Assembly: GCA_028715175.1 (NCBI GenBank)
Contig: JAQUSJ010000001.1
Span: 7,760-71,759, forward strand
Direction of reading: 5' to 3'
Length of the DNA stretch: 64,000 bases
From: Candidatus Daviesbacteria bacterium
GTDB taxonomy: Bacteria > Patescibacteriota > Microgenomatia > Daviesbacterales > UBA10151
The notes below the pieces were generated by a model that had not been told where the DNA came from, ran no database searches, and worked only from the letters and a program-made list of their open reading frames with translations. Made by a program: the position numbers and the translations under genes. Shown piece by piece: positions 5,177 through 51,145 of the stretch (position 1 is the stretch's first letter; each line of letters starts with the position of its first letter).

Positions 5177-7519
5177 CTACAGTCTCGCTCTTGATGCTAT
5201 CTCTCCCTCGACTTGAGTCACATCCCGACCATATTTCAACCTAGATAACTCTCTGATGGCCTGGCCTATTTGGGGATTTAGCATAGCCTTCCATTTTTTC
5301 ATATCTTTAGTTGTATCCAGGGAAAAAGGCACCACCGGCTCACCATTAACAATGGTTTTAATATAAGTATGAGGAGCTTCAATATTTACCAGATCTGCCT
5401 CTGTAAAAGTGGGTGAAAATTCATGCTGCAGGTAATTGGCATCAGTTACACCCACTCTAAACCCGATAATTGTACCAACGTTTCCAAAAACAGCGTTTTT
5501 CAAATCCTCACCTATCTGACCAATAAATTGATTAGCCACAATCAAGTTTAATCTATATTTCCTGGCTTCAGAAAGAATATCCGCAAAAGTATCGGTAGCG
5601 AAATTTTGAAACTCATCAACATAAAGATAAAAATCCCGCCGCTCCTCCATCGGCACATCAGAACGGGACATGGCAGCAGCTAAAATTTTGGGGACTAAAA
5701 TTAATCCCAGGAAATTGGAGTTTTCCTCCCCTATCCGCCCTTTTGAAAGATTCATAATTAAAATCTTTCCTTCATCCATAACTTTCCGCAGGTCAAACGA
5801 GGATTTTGATTGGCCAATAATATTCCTCATCATTTTATTGGTAACAAACCGGCCGAATTTAGACACCGTATAATCCAAAACTTCCGATTTGTGGAAGTCC
5901 GTAGTTTGAGCAATCTGGTCTGTCCAATAACGCCTCACAACCGGATCAGTAACTTTCGGCAGGAGTTCTTTGACAAAGTTGGCATCAGTCATAATTCTGA
6001 CCACCTCCACAAAAGTAGCGCCCGGATCACTCATAGCAGTAAGCATCGCATTCCTAACACCATGTTCAAAACGGGGACCGATAATTCCTGTTTTATTAGG
6101 ATCAAAAAGTTTGTACATGAGTCCTATTATTGAAGCTACGACAAAATGTTTTTGTTCTTCGGCATAAGCTTCCAGCATGTTTAATCCAAATGGCCGGGTC
6201 ATATCAGAGGGATCAAAATAAATTACATCTTCCGCTCTCTGGGGCGGGATCAGTTGCAACATCTCCTCAGCCGCATCTCCGTGGGGATCAATAAAACAGA
6301 GTCCTTTGCCGGCCATAACGTCTTGCAACATTAAAGTTTTAAGTAATTCCGACTTTCCTGTACCGGTCCGGCCGATGATATACATATGCCTTCGCCTGTC
6401 GTCTTCCGAAAGATAGACCGGCCTGTCTACGCCGCGGAAAACAGACCTGCCTAAAAATAAACCGCTGACGGGAATCTTTTCCGGAGCCGGAGCCCGTTTT
6501 GATGAAAGCCAACTGATATAAGGCGTTTCAATGGACTTGTTCGGAAAATGAAAAATAGAGGCCAGTTCATCAGGTGCTAGAACCGAAAGCTTAGTAAATC
6601 TGGGCATATAACGATAAATAAAATCGGTTAAAAACCCTTTTTGGGAATACACTTTGGCGCTGGTGAATGAGTTATATGGTCCGCTAAATTGCTCAAAAGC
6701 TGTTTTGATATTGGCCAGATGAGCTTTGGCAGCTGCTTCGGAAGTGCTGGAAGTGACAATCCGCAAACTGATGTCAAATCCTGATTTGGAAAGCTTACCT
6801 TCAACTGCTTCCAGCTCCTTGGCGTCGGGAAGAGCTTTCGGATTTTTTTCATCTCCCGGCTCTTTTTGTTTTTTCAGCCATTTTTTACCTAAATCCTTCC
6901 AGGTATTACCCGAAGGCGAGATCATAAGCTGTATGGCTATTCCTTCGTTCATTTGCATCTTGGCAAAAGCCGAAGTCAGGGCTGAAAGAGGGTCTGTAGG
7001 CAGGTCGCGGAAAGTTTTAATCGGGAAATAATCCGCATTCTTCAGTTTCAACTGAGTATAAGCTACTTCCCCGGTCTCAGAAAAGATATTGTATTCTGGA
7101 ACCTCTTTAATTTCGGCATCAGGATAAGCGCCATGAATTTGTTTCTCAATTAAATCCTGGTGTGATTTATAACAAGCCACAAAAAATCTGATTGATTCGT
7201 GCAAAGCTACAACCTCAAAAGACAAATGTGGTTGCGGGTTCAAAACACCTAACATCCCTCCGGATTTCCGCAGAGACGAAAGGGTGGCAAAGAGCTGTTC
7301 AATGGCATCTATTTTAACTTCATTCCCTCTCGGGACTTTAATTTGTAAAAGCACAAACTGCAATGACAACTTTTCCCTACCCCTGTACTTAATCCAATCC
7401 ACCAGGTATTTACGCAAAAAAAGAAAAATACCCGCCAGCAAAAGCAGCAGTCCTAAAACTGCAATTGTAGCTATGATTAAACCTGTAAAATCTATTCCGC
7501 TTGCTTGAGTAACTTCCAT
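5177..7519 (-). CDS. type IV secretion coupling-protein-like P-loop ATPase (VirD4/TraG/TraD or DUF87 family)
   Basis: N-terminal TM helix. Walker A YIIGRTGTGKSELLKTL, FIDPHGD, and a Walker B-like LYVDEFQNF...LIVANQ. 780 aa. Confidence 0.5.
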   Translation of the reverse strand: MEVTQASGIDFTGLIIATIAVLGLLLLLAGIFLFLRKYLVDWIKYRGREKLSLQFVLLQIKVPRGNEVKIDAIEQLFATLSSLRKSGGMLGVLNPQPHLSFEVVALHESIRFFVACYKSHQDLIEKQIHGAYPDAEIKEVPEYNIFSETGEVAYTQLKLKNADYFPIKTFRDLPTDPLSALTSAFAKMQMNEGIAIQLMISPSGNTWKDLGKKWLKKQKEPGDEKNPKALPDAKELEAVEGKLSKSGFDISLRIVTSSTSEAAAKAHLANIKTAFEQFSGPYNSFTSAKVYSQKGFLTDFIYRYMPRFTKLSVLAPDELASIFHFPNKSIETPYISWLSSKRAPAPEKIPVSGLFLGRSVFRGVDRPVYLSEDDRRRHMYIIGRTGTGKSELLKTLMLQDVMAGKGLCFIDPHGDAAEEMLQLIPPQRAEDVIYFDPSDMTRPFGLNMLEAYAEEQKHFVVASIIGLMYKLFDPNKTGIIGPRFEHGVRNAMLTAMSDPGATFVEVVRIMTDANFVKELLPKVTDPVVRRYWTDQIAQTTDFHKSEVLDYTVSKFGRFVTNKMMRNIIGQSKSSFDLRKVMDEGKILIMNLSKGRIGEENSNFLGLILVPKILAAAMSRSDVPMEERRDFYLYVDEFQNFATDTFADILSEARKYRLNLIVANQFIGQIGEDLKNAVFGNVGTIIGFRVGVTDANYLQHEFSPTFTEADLVNIEAPHTYIKTIVNGEPVVPFSLDTTKDMKKWKAMLNPQIGQAIRELSRLKYGRDVTQVEGEIASRARL

Positions 7520-22420: not shown

Positions 22421-23092
22421 TTAAAAAGTAACTACTTTATCACTCTTCTTTATCAGATTATAGAGTTCTTTCATACCGCTTACCGGACAGGTTTTATCTG
22501 ATTTATCTCGATTGCAGTCATAACATGTCACCTGAATGTTGTTTTCCTCGGAACTTCCTCCTTTTGAAACAGGAATCATGTGATCAAATTCAATTTCATT
22601 ATCCTTTAAAACTTTTCCACATAATTGACATTGATTATTATCTCTCCTTACCACTCTCAACATTACATGGCGAGGGATGTTTCTTCCTACTCTCCTTAAT
22701 TTTTCAGTTTCTGTAAATGGTTCGTTTACAAAAAAAACCGGACATAGATGACCAAAAACAGAGCATGCTTTTTGTAAGTCGTCTTTTGAGTGTTTGATGG
22801 GGTAATTATCTGACTTAAATTCTTTTACTTCTTTTTCAAATATCTTTTTTCTTTCACCCGAATAAGCTTTCTTCTCTAGTTGTTGCCTAAGAAATTTATT
22901 ATGTTCTATTGCTTCTGCTCTAGTAGAACCTGGTAACGGAAACTCTTCAACCGATACACCATAAGGACAATATTTTAATTCCCAACAAGGTTTACATACA
23001 TTTTTTGTTCTCTTTTTCCATTCCTTGTCAACAACTTCATCACTGGTTTTTGGGTTAAACCCTAGAAGGGTTTTAATAAAGGGACTGATCAT
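22421..23092 (-). CDS. HNH endonuclease domain protein
   Basis: CQLCGK...EFDHMIPVSKGGSSEENNIQVTCYDCNRDK HNH motif; extra N-terminal Cys cluster. Confidence 0.7.
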   Translation of the reverse strand: MISPFIKTLLGFNPKTSDEVVDKEWKKRTKNVCKPCWELKYCPYGVSVEEFPLPGSTRAEAIEHNKFLRQQLEKKAYSGERKKIFEKEVKEFKSDNYPIKHSKDDLQKACSVFGHLCPVFFVNEPFTETEKLRRVGRNIPRHVMLRVVRRDNNQCQLCGKVLKDNEIEFDHMIPVSKGGSSEENNIQVTCYDCNRDKSDKTCPVSGMKELYNLIKKSDKVVTF

Positions 23093-23120: not shown

Positions 23121-23382
23121 GAAAATTGAGCTCCCCCGCGTGGATTCGAACCACGAACCTTCTTCTTACAGAACTCCTTCTGTTACCAAAAGGTCTGGAC
23201 TATCTTATGTCGCCTGAGGCGACTCGGGTATATAGTCTCTACACATTTACCCCGCCATGGCGGGGATTTAGCTCGGGATTATCCTTCGATAAACTTAGGA
23301 CTTCCCCGAATTAGCCCGATTTTTCAATCCCGATTACTCGGGAAAGCTGCCTGATTAGACAGGAAGCCGCTCTACCATTGAG
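23121..23382 (-). tRNA. tRNA-Asn (GUU) interrupted by a group I intron; exons 23349-23382 and 23121-23158
   Basis: 5' exon TCCCCTGTAGCTCAATGGTAGAGCGGCTTCCTGT and 3' exon TAAGAAGAAGGTTCGTGGTTCGAATCCACGCGGGGGAG rejoin to give anticodon loop CTGTTAA (GUU). The 5' exon ends in U and the intron ends in G. Confidence 0.7.
23159..23348 (-). ncRNA. group I intron (190 nt, no ORF) within the tRNA-Asn anticodon loop
   Basis: Conserved core elements GTAGAGACTA (R) and AAGATAGTCC (S) forming P7; P/Q-like AATTCGGGGAAG and AATCCCGAGC; hairpins P2 (CCCGAGTAATCGGG), P6a (CCCCGCCATGGCGGGG), P8 (GTCGCCTCAGGCGAC); terminal G. Confidence 0.7.
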
Positions 23383-23460
23383 CTACAGGGGAATTAGGTT
23401 AATGTACAATTAAGAATGTACAATTAATAATTCAAAACATTTAAAAGTGCAATTTTACAA

Positions 23461-23844
23461 TTATCTTTTTGGACTATTCCCTTTAGTCCTCTTAATAATT
23501 GAAGTCAAAATTTTAATGATCTCTTGATTTTCTTCTAAAAGAACTTCTAACCTTGACTTGGAGATTATACCTACTTCTGCAATCATTCTCAACCAATATT
23601 CGGTTTCTCTGGCCTCCTTAAGTGCTACAGTCAAACCATAAATAAATTCTTTTCTCGAACCTGCATTTTGGGCTTCTTCTGTATTAGCTCCAATACTGGT
23701 ACCACACCTGATCAATTGATTCCCAATAGCAATTCCAGCAGAATTTCTAGGTAGGGACATAACCAATTTAACAACCCTCACTCCAAAATTAAATGTTCTC
23801 TCTCGGATGTCAAAAACTTTGTTTTCCGAGCCTGAATTGTACAT
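23461..23844 (-). CDS. four-helix-bundle protein (23S rRNA intervening-sequence protein family)
   Basis: AIGNQLIRCGTSIGANTEEAQNAGSRKEFIYGLTVALKEARETEYWLRM matches the family motif. Confidence 0.7.
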   Translation of the reverse strand: MYNSGSENKVFDIRERTFNFGVRVVKLVMSLPRNSAGIAIGNQLIRCGTSIGANTEEAQNAGSRKEFIYGLTVALKEARETEYWLRMIAEVGIISKSRLEVLLEENQEIIKILTSIIKRTKGNSPKR

Positions 23845-24103
23845 TTTACATTATACATTGTACATTATCTTTAGGGGTGAGAAATTTGTATAAACAAATC
23901 AGTCAGTATTTCAAAAATCATGTTTATTATAACTCTGCTATTCATATCCTGGTTGGGATAGGTGTAGGCATACTTTTAACTTATCCTTTGGCAGGAACTC
24001 ACCCTGTCCGTTGGGGACTTACGTTTTTGGCTTTGGGAATCTTAGGACACCTTTGTCCTTTGGTTAAAAAATAATCGGGAACATATTTAACTTAAGAAAG
24101 GAG

Positions 24104-24647: not shown

Positions 24648-25328
24648 TTGTCGTTTAAGTTTTCCCTTTTAATATTCATGGTAGAAAGAAGATTCAGATT
24701 AATAGTACCTGCTGCTTTGTTGGCGCTTTTGCTGCTGAGCAGTGGCGGTAAACCATCAGAAACTGATGCTGCTGAAACAGGAATTATCAGTGAAATTGCG
24801 CCAGCAAGTCTGGTTGAAGGTTATCATGAAGTTCTAGATTCAATACCTGAATTAACATCCAACCCCGAGCCAGATCCAACAGAAAAAAATCCAGCTATCT
24901 TGGATATTCCTGAACTAGGCAAGTTCTACCCAACAAATTTAGTTATGGAAGGTCCAGCTAGCACTTATTCAGTAGAAGGATGTCTTGGCTGCAGACCCGA
25001 TAGACTAATGGCTAACGGGGATCCCCTAGATAACAGTAAGCTTACTTTAGCTGCTCTGCCAGAATTTCTCCTCAATACATATGTTCTGGTAGAGAATATT
25101 ACTATAGATAATGATAATAAATTCCCTGATAATAGGGGCGGGGTAGTAGCTAAGGTGACTGACAGAGGCAGATTCCCAAAAGGGAGAATAGCAGATCTAA
25201 CATTAACCACAAATCATTTTGTACTTGGGGGCCAACCATTGCCTCAAGGAAAAACACTCATAGTAAGGCTGACTGGTTTAGAACCAATCGAATCTGTTCG
25301 AGATAATCTTATTCCAAATAATCCCTAA
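24648..25328 (+). CDS. secreted 3D-domain (MltA/RlpA-like barrel) protein
   Basis: Signal peptide; C-terminal [25 protein letters not shown] resembles the 3D domain. Confidence 0.5.
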
Positions 25329-26400
25329 GTTTTTTAGCCCGGGTGGGGTGCTTTAGTTTTCTAATGGCTTTTGCTTCTATTTGCCTAATACGCTCCCTGG
25401 TTACTCCAAACTCTTTCCCGACTTCTTCCAAAGTCCGCTGTTTCCCATCTTCCAATCCAAAACGAAGCTGTAGAACTCTTTTTTCCCTGGGAGAAAGACT
25501 ATTCAACACTTCATCAAGGTGAACCTTCAAAAGTTCCCGGGTGGCTTGCTCGTCCGGTTGCAATCCCTGATCGGCAATAAAATCCCCTAAATGAGAGTCT
25601 TCTTCGTCTCCCACGGGCGTTTCCAGAGAGGTTGGCTCCTGTGAAACCTTAATAATTTCCCGGGCCTTACTCTCGTCAATTCCCAGCGCTTTAGCAACTT
25701 CTTCCGGGGCCGGTTCCCTGCCCAACTCCTGCATGAGTCTCCTTTGAGTTCTATTAAATCTGTTTATTGTTTCAACCATATGTACGGGAATGCGAATAGT
25801 CCTGGCCTGGTCAGCGATTGCCCTGGTGATAGCTTGCCTGATCCACCAAGTGGCATAGGTTGAAAATTTATAGCCCCTTCTCCAGTCATACTTATCAACC
25901 GCCCTCATCAAACCGATATTACCCTCTTCTATTAAATCCAAAAGGCTCATTCCGCGCCCCACATATTTCTTGGCAATAGATACAACCAGTCTTAAGTTGG
26001 CGCTGATTAACTTATCCCGGGCTCTCTGCTCATTTTTTTCGGCTCTTTTTGCTAAATCTATCTCGTCTTGTGCTGTAAGAAGTGGAATCTTGCCTATGTC
26101 GCGTAGATACTGCCTGACAGGATCTGTAACCGAACCGCTTTCCAGAGTTGATAATACTTCCAGCTCTTTTTCCAGCTCTGTGGCAGTCTTAGTGTCGGTT
26201 TCAAGCTCTTCTGCTGTATTTTCAAACACATCAATATTTTCATTGATTAATTTGACATAAAATTCATCTAACTGCTCTATCGCTTCTTCAGGCTTAGGGA
26301 AAACTACCAGAATCTCTTCCTGGGTCACAAATCCCCGGTTTTTCCCTAGTTTAATAAGCTTCTTTATATCCAGCGGTGTTTGTTTTTTGATTTTAGCCAT
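25309..26400 (-). CDS. rpoD: RNA polymerase sigma-70 factor
   Basis: Regions 2-4: [51 protein letters not shown]-terminal HTH. Start taken at MAKIKKQ. Confidence 0.9.
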
Positions 26401-26457
26401 AATGGTTAGTAACAAGTACAGGAGTAACAAGGCACAAGTTAAATAACTTGTTACTTG

Positions 26458-28233
26458 TTACAAATTCTTCAATTTCACCGATAAATCTCTGGCTTTTTTG
26501 CTAAGAGATTCTACTACTTCCAGTTTACCAAACTCCTGCGCATTTTTAATTTCCAAAGATAGCTTCTCCAGAGATGCCTTGATTAAAGCTTTTTTAAGTT
26601 CCGATACAACCCCGTCAAGCTCTTTTCTCCAAAACCCCTCATCAACCAGTCTTCTGTCGAGCTCTACTAAGTATAATCTATCTACCTCTGATAGCAATTC
26701 TTTTGGCAAATTTATAACAAATTCATTAATATTAAAAGCCTTGCTTTTAAAAGATATCGAATCTAAATACAATACCAAAAGTACATAAAGTTGGCGCCAT
26801 TTCTCTGCCAGGAATAATGTCTCCGGAAAACTTGGGATAAAAACTAAATCTTTTGGCGGATGCAAAAGCAGAGCGATTAAATATTCTTCCAGCAGCTCTC
26901 TTCTTGATTTGGATGGTACGATATCATCCTCTACAGTTGTCTTTTGGAAAATTGCGGTATAGCTTTGTGAGGTTGATTTGCGGATTTTTTCAACGCCGTC
27001 TCGTATGATTTTCTCTTCTGTTTTTAGAAAAGCTGACAATCTTTGAATATAACGTTCCCTGACCAGATCATCAGTGATTTTAGCCCAAATAGGCATCAGC
27101 TCTTCTCCAATCTTTTTCAAATCGTTCGGATTTTTACTGTCATATCTTTTAGCAATAGACGTTAGATAATAATCATAAATTGGCACCGCCTCTGTTATAG
27201 CTTTCTGCCAGATAGCCGGATCGGCCTTGACTGCCTGCGCAGCATCTTTATCTCCTTCAAGCTGGATCACTTTGATATTTAATCCTGCCTTATCCGCCAT
27301 CTCAATCCCGCGCCGGCTGGCGCTATCCCCTGCCAGATCCATATCAAAACCCAACAGTAAGCTTTCCGTATACTTTTTAAGTAGATCAATTTGTCCTTCT
27401 GTCAACGCAGTACCTTTGGAAGCAACTATATTTTTGAATCCTGCCTGAAAAGATAAAATCATGTCCATTTCCCCTTCTACCAGAATCGCTTCTTTTTTGT
27501 TTCTGATTTCTCCTTTGGCCAAATTAAGGCCAAATAAAAAACTGCCTTTGTCAAAAATCGGGGTCTGAGGAGTATTTATGTATTTTGGTTCGGCATGATA
27601 CAGGACCCGACCCGAAAATCCTCTTAATTTATCTTTGCTATCAAACAGCGGATAGGTAATCCTGCCTCTAAACCGGTCATAACTGTCAGATTTTGAGGCA
27701 ACCCCGAGACCCGATATCACGATTTCCTGGGTGCTAAATCCTCTCTTGAGTAAAAATTTAGTCAGGGATTCCCAGGAATTAGGAGCATATCCTATGCCAA
27801 ATTGGGAAATTGTTTCAAGACTCACACCTCTGTCTTGCAAGTATTCCAAAGCCTTTTTGCCTAATGGGTGTTTAGTTAAAATATAGTGGAAAAATTCCTG
27901 GGCTTTAAGATTGACTTCAAATAGTCTTTCTTTAAAATCTTTTTTGTCAGGGGATTTTTTTAAGGTCACTCCGGCTTTATTAGCCAGTATTTCCAGTGCC
28001 TCCTTGAATTCCATACCTTCTTTTTCCATCAAGAAAGTAAAGACATCTCCGCTTTTTTGACAGCCAAAACATTTGAAGATTTGGCGCTCGGGTGAAACTA
28101 TAAATGAGGGTGTTTTCTCGTTATGGAAAGGGCAATTTGCTTTAAAATTAACACCGGCTTTTTTTAAAGGAAGATATTCCGAGATTAAATCTACAATATT
28201 AATTTTTTCTTTAATCAGTTCGGTGTCATCCAT
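26458..28233 (-). CDS. dnaG: DNA primase
   Basis: Zinc-binding CPFHNEKTPSF...CFGCQKSGDVFTF, Toprim domain; immediately upstream of rpoD (classical operon). Confidence 0.9.
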   Translation of the reverse strand: MDDTELIKEKINIVDLISEYLPLKKAGVNFKANCPFHNEKTPSFIVSPERQIFKCFGCQKSGDVFTFLMEKEGMEFKEALEILANKAGVTLKKSPDKKDFKERLFEVNLKAQEFFHYILTKHPLGKKALEYLQDRGVSLETISQFGIGYAPNSWESLTKFLLKRGFSTQEIVISGLGVASKSDSYDRFRGRITYPLFDSKDKLRGFSGRVLYHAEPKYINTPQTPIFDKGSFLFGLNLAKGEIRNKKEAILVEGEMDMILSFQAGFKNIVASKGTALTEGQIDLLKKYTESLLLGFDMDLAGDSASRRGIEMADKAGLNIKVIQLEGDKDAAQAVKADPAIWQKAITEAVPIYDYYLTSIAKRYDSKNPNDLKKIGEELMPIWAKITDDLVRERYIQRLSAFLKTEEKIIRDGVEKIRKSTSQSYTAIFQKTTVEDDIVPSKSRRELLEEYLIALLLHPPKDLVFIPSFPETLFLAEKWRQLYVLLVLYLDSISFKSKAFNINEFVINLPKELLSEVDRLYLVELDRRLVDEGFWRKELDGVVSELKKALIKASLEKLSLEIKNAQEFGKLEVVESLSKKARDLSVKLKNL

Positions 28234-32003: not shown

Positions 32004-32091
32004 GGTGGGGTGCTTGGAGTGGTTTATCAGGTTGGTCTTGAAAACCAATGGCCGAGCAATCGGCCCGTGAGTTCGAATCTCACCCCCACCG
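32004..32091 (+). tRNA. tRNA-Ser (UGA)
   Basis: Acceptor GGTGGGG/CCCCACC, anticodon arm TTGGT-CTTGAAA-ACCAA, long variable arm TGGCCGAGCAATCGGCCC. Confidence 0.85.
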
Positions 32092-32114
32092 CCCTTTGGT
32101 ATAATATCCCATAA

Positions 32115-33432: not shown

Positions 33433-33851
33433 GGGGATGTATAGTCTCGACAGGATTGCTCTTTAAAAACTGCAAGCCGTTAAGGAAACATTAAACGTTA
33501 AATATTGTTTCAAAACACAAACGGCAATGATATTGCTCGTTACCTGAAGCAGTTCGCTGCTAAGATCGCAGGCGCTAACCCATTTATGGGTCAGCAACTC
33601 GCTTTCCGAATAGCTTATAGCTAAAGGTTACTTTAGAAATTGTTCTCTTTCTGACGGAACACTAAGGTACGTACAAAGTCAGGATGCTGTTAATACAATT
33701 TTGATCGATCAGTATTAACAAAAGAAAGTTTGGTCATTCAATAGTTTTCCTGCTAATTGGTTACAACTATTGAATAAAAATTAATTAGCTAAGCTTGTAG
33801 AAGTTTTTTTAGTTGCAATTTTGGACGGGGGTGCAAAACCCCCCATCTCCA
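33433..33851 (+). ncRNA. ssrA: tmRNA (ssrA)
   Basis: 5' end GGGGATGTATAGTCTCGACAGGA resembles the tmRNA tRNA-like 5' end (GGGGCUGAUUCUGGAUUCGACGGGA). 3' end GGACGGGGGTGCAAAACCCCCCATCTCCA parallels the E. coli tmRNA 3' GGACGGGGGTTCAAATCCCCCCAGCTCCACCA, with acceptor GGGGATG/CATCTCC. TTGATT-N19-ATATAAT promoter just upstream; smpB lies 0.6 kb away. Confidence 0.7.
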
Positions 33852-33891
33852 CACCATTGACTATTGCTCCACAGTAGTATACGCTGAGAGC

Positions 33892-50696: not shown

Positions 50697-50756
50697 ATTG
50701 CTCCTGCTCGGGATAGAATCTCGCCGTTAGGCGAAGTGGTCGGTCTCCTGACTTAA

Positions 50757-50838
50757 TCAGCTCTCAGCTTTCAGTCTTCAGCTATCAGACTAAAAATTCT
50801 TGTCTGACAACTGATGACCGACGACTGATGACTGAAAT
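50757..50838. repeat. dispersed imperfect-palindrome repeat element, divergent copy C
   Basis: tcagctctcagctttcagtcttcagctatcagac-taaaaattcttg-gtctgacaactgatgaccgacgactgatgactgaaatc. Confidence 0.45.
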
Positions 50839-51145
50839 CACAGTTGCGGCACAGTCCAGGATTCTCACCTGATTCCCTTTTTAAGAGCGAAGCTCGCAAG
50901 CTCCGCTTATTTCTTCTCCCGCCAGAGGCGGGATGAAATACCACAACGTTAGAATAACAACTCAAAACTCAAATGTCAAAACTCAAAACTAAAACTTAAA
51001 ATCTTAAAATTTTAAAACCTTTGAGATTTAAGATGCAGATTTGCGATTTGAGATCTAAGATTTGAGATTAATATGGATTGCCCCATAATGATCTGTTTTG
51101 TGACTCTTGCCATCATTTTTTTCACGATGTATATAGATAGTATCT

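Follow-up and report, generated by a model that had tools for sequence, protein, structure and literature searches.

A compact group I intron in the tRNA-Asn(GUU) gene of a Daviesbacteria genome, and the HNH endonuclease gene beside it

A compact group I intron without an ORF splits the tRNA-Asn(GUU) gene of the window (here the whole 64-kb stretch of Candidatus Daviesbacteria DNA that was analysed) between nucleotides 35 and 36. This reading is fully supported, since a covariance model, the logic of the splice register, covariation among relatives and a published homolog with validated splicing all point to it. Such introns of Patescibacteria are described by Nakagawa et al. 2026 (mSystems, PMC13011429; preprint 10.1101/2025.07.03.662931). 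Considered as a whole, the locus is very probably best explained as a compact group I ribozyme in tRNA-Asn(GUU) with, next to it, an HNH endonuclease gene that is an unrelated insertion.

The split gene and its joined exons

The complete gene (262 nt) is on the minus strand at 23131..23392. The first-pass annotation, which named no strand, had the right length but a position (23121-23382) shifted by 10 nt. Exon 1 (23359..23392, 34 nt) provides the acceptor 5′ strand, the D arm, the anticodon-stem 5′ strand and C32 U33 G34 U35, with U35 at 23359. The intron (23169..23358, 190 nt), recognised by its match to RF00028, by nhmmer and by its published homolog, ends with its terminal G (omega G) at 23169. 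Exon 2 (23131..23168, 38 nt) starts with U36 A37 A38 and the anticodon-stem 3′ strand, and continues through the variable loop, the T arm and the acceptor 3′ strand to the discriminator G73; CCA is not encoded. Though the position had to be moved, the re-mapped boundaries give exons of 34 and 38 nt and an intron of 190 nt, as had been claimed, and the intron is indeed without an ORF (its strand has none that reaches 50 aa).

The joined exons have the anticodon loop CUGUUAA that had been predicted for the spliced product, and ARAGORN calls them tRNA-Asn(gtt). They fold as a cloverleaf, with a G27-A43 mismatch in the anticodon stem, and match the Microgenomatia tRNA-Asn of GCA_016700135.1 at 58 of 72 positions. 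Their first 25 nt are identical to those of the published Patescibacteria tRNA-Asn of GCA_000503835.1.

Group I identity and the splice register

The Rfam model RF00028 (Intron_gpI) matches 23373..23176 on the minus strand over its full extent (model positions 1-253) with 65.2 bits, the gathering score being 50, and E 2.9e-14, so that the covariance search that had been put forward as a check on the group I assignment is positive. An nhmmer profile made from 71 related introns matches the window at E 2.4e-37.

For the splice register, all eight placements of the intron in the anticodon loop were enumerated. Only at 35/36 does the 5′ exon end with U and the intron with G; the insertion point between nucleotides 35 and 36 that was proposed at the outset is thus the sole register of the eight in accord with both splice-site rules, and the G that had been noted directly ahead of the 3′ exon is in place at 23169.

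In P1 (23347..23362, minus strand) exon nucleotides C32-U35 and the first two intron nucleotides, C1 and U2 (together 23362-23357), are paired with the guide AGGCAG (23352-23347), and the 5′ splice site is marked by the wobble pair of U35 (23359) with G (23350). The G is the first of the GCAG at intron positions 9-12, just as the first-pass annotation had suggested. In the 72 introns of the alignment described below, CUGU/GCAG is invariant. The pair flanking the wobble joins intron position +1 to the base directly before GCAG; it covaries (CG 27, GC 24, AU 15, UA 4) and is standard, with four covarying types, in 77% of 99 introns; it is this covariation that fixes the 5′ splice site after U35. 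Since loop gaps blurred P1 in the alignment, its extension was checked sequence by sequence. The P1 alignment offered by Rfam, GCUUCCU/AGGCAGC, was rejected because the splice site then falls outside the helix, and covariation backs CUGUCU/AGGCAG. P1 holds only four exon base pairs, and a P10 pairing was looked for in the window intron and not found.

Fold and covariation

A scan of one genome per species for a compact core followed by the 3′ half of tRNA-Asn gave at least 120 loci. Among the matches listed, 113 loci were parsed, and 98 of these are tRNA-Asn(GUU) split between CTGT and TAA. In a Pyrinomonadaceae MAG (locus L056, 2813-3098) the gene that this compact type interrupts at 35/36 (between CTCT and TAA) is tRNA-Lys(CUU), where a 151-aa Cys/His-rich ORF is found 56 nt downstream of the split gene; three scanned loci read CTTT before TAA and would be tRNA-Lys(UUU). 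The window intron and 71 distinct compact introns (72 sequences) make up alignment A1, to which the P1-P9 model was applied. In it 85.7% of cells are paired, as against 67.0% in shuffles, and the covariation score is 0.506, as against 0.176 in shuffles (none of 500 reaches 0.506) and 0.07-0.19 in slid registers. Compensatory changes are present in 41 of the 55 modelled pairs.

All helices lie on the minus strand. The P2 hairpin (23328..23343; 6 bp) and the P9 hairpin (23176..23193; 7 bp) are both capped by a GUAA (GNRA) tetraloop. Of P2 cells 96.5% are paired, with compensatory changes in all 6 pairs, and for P9, after which 7 nt ending in the omega G follow, the values are 87.8% and 7 of 7. 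P3 (23319-23315 with 23228-23224; 88% paired, 4 of 5 pairs compensatory) encloses P4 (23309-23304 with 23278-23273), P5 (23301-23297 with 23285-23281) and P6/P6a (23272-23243). P4 and P5 together are 85% paired with 9 of 11 pairs compensatory, and P6 is 100% paired. P7 (23239-23233 with 23202-23197) contains a bulged A. Between its strands lie the 3′ strand of P3 and the hairpin P8 (23223-23209), and P3 and P7 form a pseudoknot around P8 in the usual group I arrangement. The G-C pair 23237/23198 within P7 is presumably the guanosine-binding site. The two P7 strands that had been picked out by eye, GTAGAGACTA (23242-23233) and AAGATAGTCC (23206-23197), are present in the sequence, and the P2, P6a and P8 hairpins recur in the modelled structure. 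P7 is identical in all 72 sequences, but the search pattern required its sequence and so partly forced this invariance, which is accordingly no evidence for or against its pairing. With 30 nt between its strands there is no hairpin of the P7.1/P7.2 type.

The minimum free energy fold of the intron alone (−67.5 kcal/mol, z = −3.5; none of 200 shuffles folds as well) independently recovers P2, P3, P4, P5, P6a, P8 and P9.

The HNH gene and its family

The free-standing HNH nuclease gene (22421..23092, minus strand; 223 aa, identical to NCBI MDD5415415.1 from Candidatus Daviesbacteria) is a neighbour of the intron and outside the element. Its place beside the tRNA gene was correctly given at first, but the spacing was not: between the 3′ end of the tRNA and the start codon at 23092 there are 38 nt, where 28 had been stated. 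That it encodes an HNH protein is confirmed by PF01844 (E 8e-13, residues 155-200). The motif occupies residues 155-201 (about 22490-22630), and the protein matches PDB 4h9d at E 1.7e-7. An AlphaFold2 model from a 15-sequence alignment (mean pLDDT 59.7, pTM 0.39) was too poor for a fold search. Identity with IscB or Cas9d was considered and rejected, as NCBIfam, PADLOC and PHROGs match the generic HNH core only and do so far below curated cut-offs.

More than 1200 homologs, of about 203 aa and 60-87% identity, are found in unrelated phyla. Besides the HNH core they share a Cys-rich, invariant N-terminal domain with the motif CKPCWELKYCPYG, and the motif FGHLCPVFF..EP.TET. The six homologs with readable context (65-87% identity) are at unrelated sites, for instance between etfB and etfA, beside spermidine synthase or beside restriction-modification genes. 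Two homologs directly adjoin a gene with an NYN/LabA-like RNase domain (L001, 4760-5326; L133, 2241-2735), and two others adjoin restriction-modification genes.

The endonucleases truly carried by the intron class, and described as intron-encoded by Nakagawa et al. 2026, are of a different, small HNH family (about 100-134 aa), three intron-encoded members of which match one another at E 1e-32 to 1e-47 in BLASTP. Among the matches listed, this small family is inside the intron, in the P1 loop, in about 17 loci, and is free-standing beside an ORF-less intron-bearing tRNA-Asn in about 10 (L062, L038, L089, L024, L072, L094, L092, L048 and L074 are flanked in this way), with exon 1 being unique in each of the loci with a free-standing copy. 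In L062, L038 and L089 the small HNH gene ends 11-34 nt before exon 1, and in L024 its ORF overlaps the start of exon 1. Downstream copies are 55-140 nt away, those of L072 and L094 starting 55-60 nt after tRNA-Asn on the same strand. These placements give the impression of an endonuclease gene caught at different stages of a move between flank and intron, and the free-standing copies imply that the count of intron-encoded endonucleases in PMC13011429 understates potential mobility. For this intron class an endonuclease acting from beside the tRNA would be plausible, though what supports this concerns the small family and does not carry over to the family of the window HNH protein.

Does the HNH gene mobilise the intron?

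The first-pass annotation suggested that the HNH gene might encode a homing enzyme acting in trans, or be what is left of an earlier mobility of the intron. With collaborative (trans) homing, the 223-aa protein would cut intronless tRNA-Asn alleles where the intron inserts; the host copy would be shielded by its intron, and new genomes would acquire both intron and HNH gene through repair. Very little of the probability goes to this. The HNH gene follows the tRNA gene on the same strand after 38 nt, nothing resembling a terminator was found between the two, and the scattered single-gene insertions of the window HNH family are a pattern typical of selfish nucleases. The relatives with a small HNH gene inside the intron or beside an ORF-less intron-bearing tRNA-Asn speak for it too, and since the layout of the window mirrors that in L072 and L094, position alone leaves room for a role.

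There are also precedents. F-CphI is encoded beside the psbA intron of cyanophage S-PM2 (PMC6083498, which cites Zeng et al. 2009), and T4 mobE is paired with I-TevIII (PMC2790892); in both, as in the window, a nuclease gene is next to a gene with an ORF-less intron. However, in the F-CphI and mobE systems the enzyme has been shown to cut the intronless allele, whereas for the window there are comparative data, and these reveal no association. Among the matches listed, tblastn found a homolog of the window HNH protein in none of the 120 intron-bearing tRNA loci. Conversely, none of the 91 HNH-homolog loci (342 kb) has the intron, as judged by the profile that scores E 2.4e-37 on the window as positive control, and Rfam found neither intron nor tRNA in the three homolog loci scanned with it (L001, L003 and L005). 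The suggested link to mobility is therefore not supported.

Eight tRNAs are present in the 91 homolog loci and only one of them, in L133, is tRNA-Asn. It is intronless, with an intact CUGUUAA loop, and is about 1 kb away on the other strand, with an NYN-like gene separating it from a 73%-identical HNH homolog; a candidate target thus coexists there, intact, with the enzyme. The closest homologs (L006 and L194, 84-87% identity) have no tRNA alongside. In BLASTP the window protein matches intron-encoded HNH proteins at E 0.025 or worse, over the shared HNH motif only, so it has no specific similarity to those of the intron class, and 60-87% identity across phyla with an invariant Cys-rich N-terminal domain is atypical of fast-evolving homing enzymes.

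A further argument comes from the Daviesbacteria locus L091, which shares the flanking orf86 and orf209 (87% identity for orf209) with the window but not the HNH gene: where the window has the HNH gene and a SHOCT-domain gene, L091 has a Fic-containing island. It is most improbable that the 223-aa protein represents another endonuclease family, unrelated to the small HNH enzymes, which independently came to occupy the site they hold downstream of tRNA-Asn in L072 and L094 and mobilises the intron in trans, though if it were so it would provide a bacterial chromosomal case of collaborative homing. Most likely the HNH gene is a single-gene insertion with no relation to the intron, in variable DNA 3′ of tRNA-Asn, and not a homing enzyme.

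Gene neighbourhood

The gene order dnaG, rpoD, intron-bearing tRNA-Asn recurs in other Daviesbacteria and in wider Patescibacteria contigs. In the window it runs on the minus strand from dnaG and rpoD (25309-28233) down to 23131, and in about 29 of the loci L012-L131 tRNA-Asn likewise follows 1-2 kb downstream. RpoD of the window is 86-97%, and DnaG 73-82%, identical to those of Daviesbacteria contigs, one of which, L125, has the closest intron among the matches listed (82% identity). What follows tRNA-Asn is not conserved. The Fic island of L091, a recombinase in L125 and the HNH and SHOCT genes of the window differ from one another, which identifies the DNA 3′ of tRNA-Asn as a variable region. 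A duplicated tRNA 3′ end, the mark of an att-bounded island, was sought in the window and none was found. The L125 gene (4485-6167, plus strand) encodes a 560-aa large serine recombinase (PF00239 and PF07508) and overlaps the 3′ end of tRNA-Asn (6060-6325, minus strand), which suggests an element integrated at tRNA-Asn.

Just upstream of the tRNA gene in the window, the ORF at 23461-23844 (minus strand) encodes a ‘23S rRNA intervening sequence protein’ (PF05635, E 2.3e-20). It is bracketed by a 35-nt inverted repeat of AATGTACAATT units (23400-23434 and 23833-23867), whose arms as RNA give −20.3 kcal/mol as against −6.7 ± 2.7 for shuffles. The repeat resembles the stem that frames rRNA intervening sequences, yet the neighbour at a distance of 8 nt is a gene for a tRNA. 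In L091 and L125 the position is taken by another gene: directly upstream of tRNA-Asn both encode a conserved protein of 231-243 aa (L125, 6329-7024; L091, 5926-6657; both minus strand). A LAGLIDADG reading of this protein, by eye from ‘GEGNKGDG’, was dropped, as Pfam gives weak N-terminal HTH matches only.

Several taxonomic labels in the set deserve caution. L117, L128 and L129 are labelled ‘uncultured Gammaproteobacteria’, and since their RpoD and DnaG are 82-91% and 58-75% identical to those of the Daviesbacteria window the labels look wrong. L013, L017, L042, L051, L063, L094 and L127 are labelled as DPANN or Methanosarcinales archaea and have a bacterial-type intron-bearing tRNA-Asn; for such archaeal cases mis-binning is suspected in Williams 2020 (bioRxiv 10.1101/2020.01.27.920355).

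Elsewhere in the window, Rfam reports a tRNA-Sec at 32004-32090 (48.7 bits, threshold 47) where ARAGORN calls tRNA-Ser(UGA), and this locus (32004-32093, plus strand) is probably an ordinary tRNA-Ser. Rfam also finds tmRNA (33433-33854, plus strand, 123 bits) and a cobalamin riboswitch (50721-50916, minus strand, 51.1 bits).

Alternative readings of the tRNA gene and its annotation

A decayed intron that no longer splices would make the locus a tRNA pseudogene, with the functional tRNA-Asn elsewhere in the genome. The short P1, the P10 that was not found and a length at the small end of the size range could be taken in that sense, and the search for other tRNA-Asn genes covers the 64-kb window of the genome. 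However, all core helices, the U-G wobble, the terminal G and the P7 sequences are intact and the exons fold into a normal cloverleaf. Compact relatives of 184-196 nt are known from further Microgenomatia, and in vitro splicing has been shown for one of these. ARAGORN in default mode found no second tRNA-Asn within the window, and a single genome seldom has both an intron-bearing and an intronless gene for the same anticodon (PMC13011429). The relic reading is consequently even harder to credit than trans homing.

Hardly any credence at all attaches to a different tRNA with the intron placed otherwise, either tRNA-Asp(GUC), as ARAGORN reports in intron mode, or tRNA-Thr(UGU) split at 33/34, as other tools tend to call, for while tool disagreement of this type is documented (PMC13011429), these registers need a 5′ exon ending with C or an intron ending with U or C, which breaks the group I rule, the exons have the 25-nt start of a Patescibacteria tRNA-Asn with U1-A72 and G73, unlike the Microgenomatia tRNA-Asp sequence GGGGTCG..., and the site after U35 set by P1 covariation has been confirmed experimentally as 35/36 in homologous introns (PMC13011429).

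With the gene taken as a split tRNA-Asn(GUU), its importance is mainly practical and concerns annotation; the locus opens no new question. By default ARAGORN does not detect the gene at all, and with its intron option (-i) it miscalls the locus as tRNA-Asp(gtc) with a misplaced 175-nt intron, in keeping with the finding that standard tRNA tools miss or misname such genes (PMC13011429). Routine annotation would thus score a reduced genome as being without tRNA-Asn and understate its completeness, a problem of missed tRNAs that was raised by PMC13011429. Should this be the sole tRNA-Asn gene, all asparagine codons of the organism would depend on ribozyme self-splicing.

Proposed splicing pathway

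A 262-nt precursor would first be transcribed from the tRNA-Asn gene. It would then fold into P1-P9, with C32-U35 and the first two intron nucleotides paired to AGGCAG and the U35-G pair setting the 5′ site. The predicted catalytic core would consist of the P3-P8 and P4-P6 domains together with P7, with GNRA loops capping P2 and P9. Sequence and covariation show the fold and the splice sites. A free guanosine held at P7 would next attack after U35, and the terminal G (23169) would afterwards take the place of the guanosine, with exon ligation then giving the loop CUGUUAA. As CCA is not encoded, it would be added after transcription. For transcription, and for everything from guanosine attack onward, the scheme follows the established group I mechanism and the validated homologs, and it is from the latter that we infer catalysis by the window intron. 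The tRNA-Asn would be functional only once spliced.

Relation to known introns

The window intron is a genuine and ordinary example of an element that is already known. In 95 complete Patescibacteria genomes, group I introns are present at 35/36 in 15 tRNA-Asn and 3 tRNA-Asp genes; self-splicing is precise in vitro and is blocked by a terminal G-to-C mutation (PMC13011429). The in vitro splicing covers the introns of GCA_016700035.1 (Asn) and GCA_001029755.1 (Asp). The window intron is not among the table entries of Nakagawa et al. 2026 that were compared. It aligns over its full length with the published Patescibacteria introns, identity to the validated tRNA-Asn intron being 52% in a full-length alignment. 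Williams 2020, which is a catalogue only, has a class ‘Asn.4Ug’ with the same tRNA and splice position, in which the 5′ exon stops at the fourth nucleotide of the anticodon loop, position −1 is U and the intron ends with G.

Subgroup assignment is less straightforward. The tRNA introns of Patescibacteria are assigned to subgroup IA and not IC (PMC13011429), and the compact Microgenomatia relatives fall inside the set that PMC13011429 calls IA. By the labels of Table S5, the spacer between the P7 strands is 59-77 nt in IA1, 36-48 nt in IC3 and 29-30 nt in IA3/IB3 introns, the window value being 30 nt. BLAST similarity to the subgroup-labelled introns of that table is mixed, and the core motifs GUGUAGAGACUA and AGAUAGUCCAGACC are common to the window intron and the fMet introns labelled IC3. 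The classical IC3 introns, of cyanobacterial tRNA-Leu(UAA) at 34/35 and of Azoarcus tRNA-Ile(CAU), have another host tRNA and another insertion position.

In most tRNA-Asn introns of Nakagawa et al. (222-262 nt) P7 and P3′ are separated by an additional hairpin of 22-30 nt, and the P7 strands are 59-77 nt apart; the window intron lacks this hairpin. The closest single published example is instead the 196-nt intron at 35/36 of tRNA-Asp in GCA_001029755.1, from the same phylum and class (Microgenomatia), which agrees with the window intron at 124 of 183 aligned positions (68% identity); many of the differences are compensatory and located in helices. Both introns are inserted after U35, have the guide GGCAGC and GNRA-capped P2 and P9, and have a compact core with neither the extra hairpin nor an ORF. 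What differs is the host, tRNA-Asn in the window and tRNA-Asp in its nearest validated relative. The window intron is a further compact member of a published class that the present scan finds in at least 98 species-level genomes.
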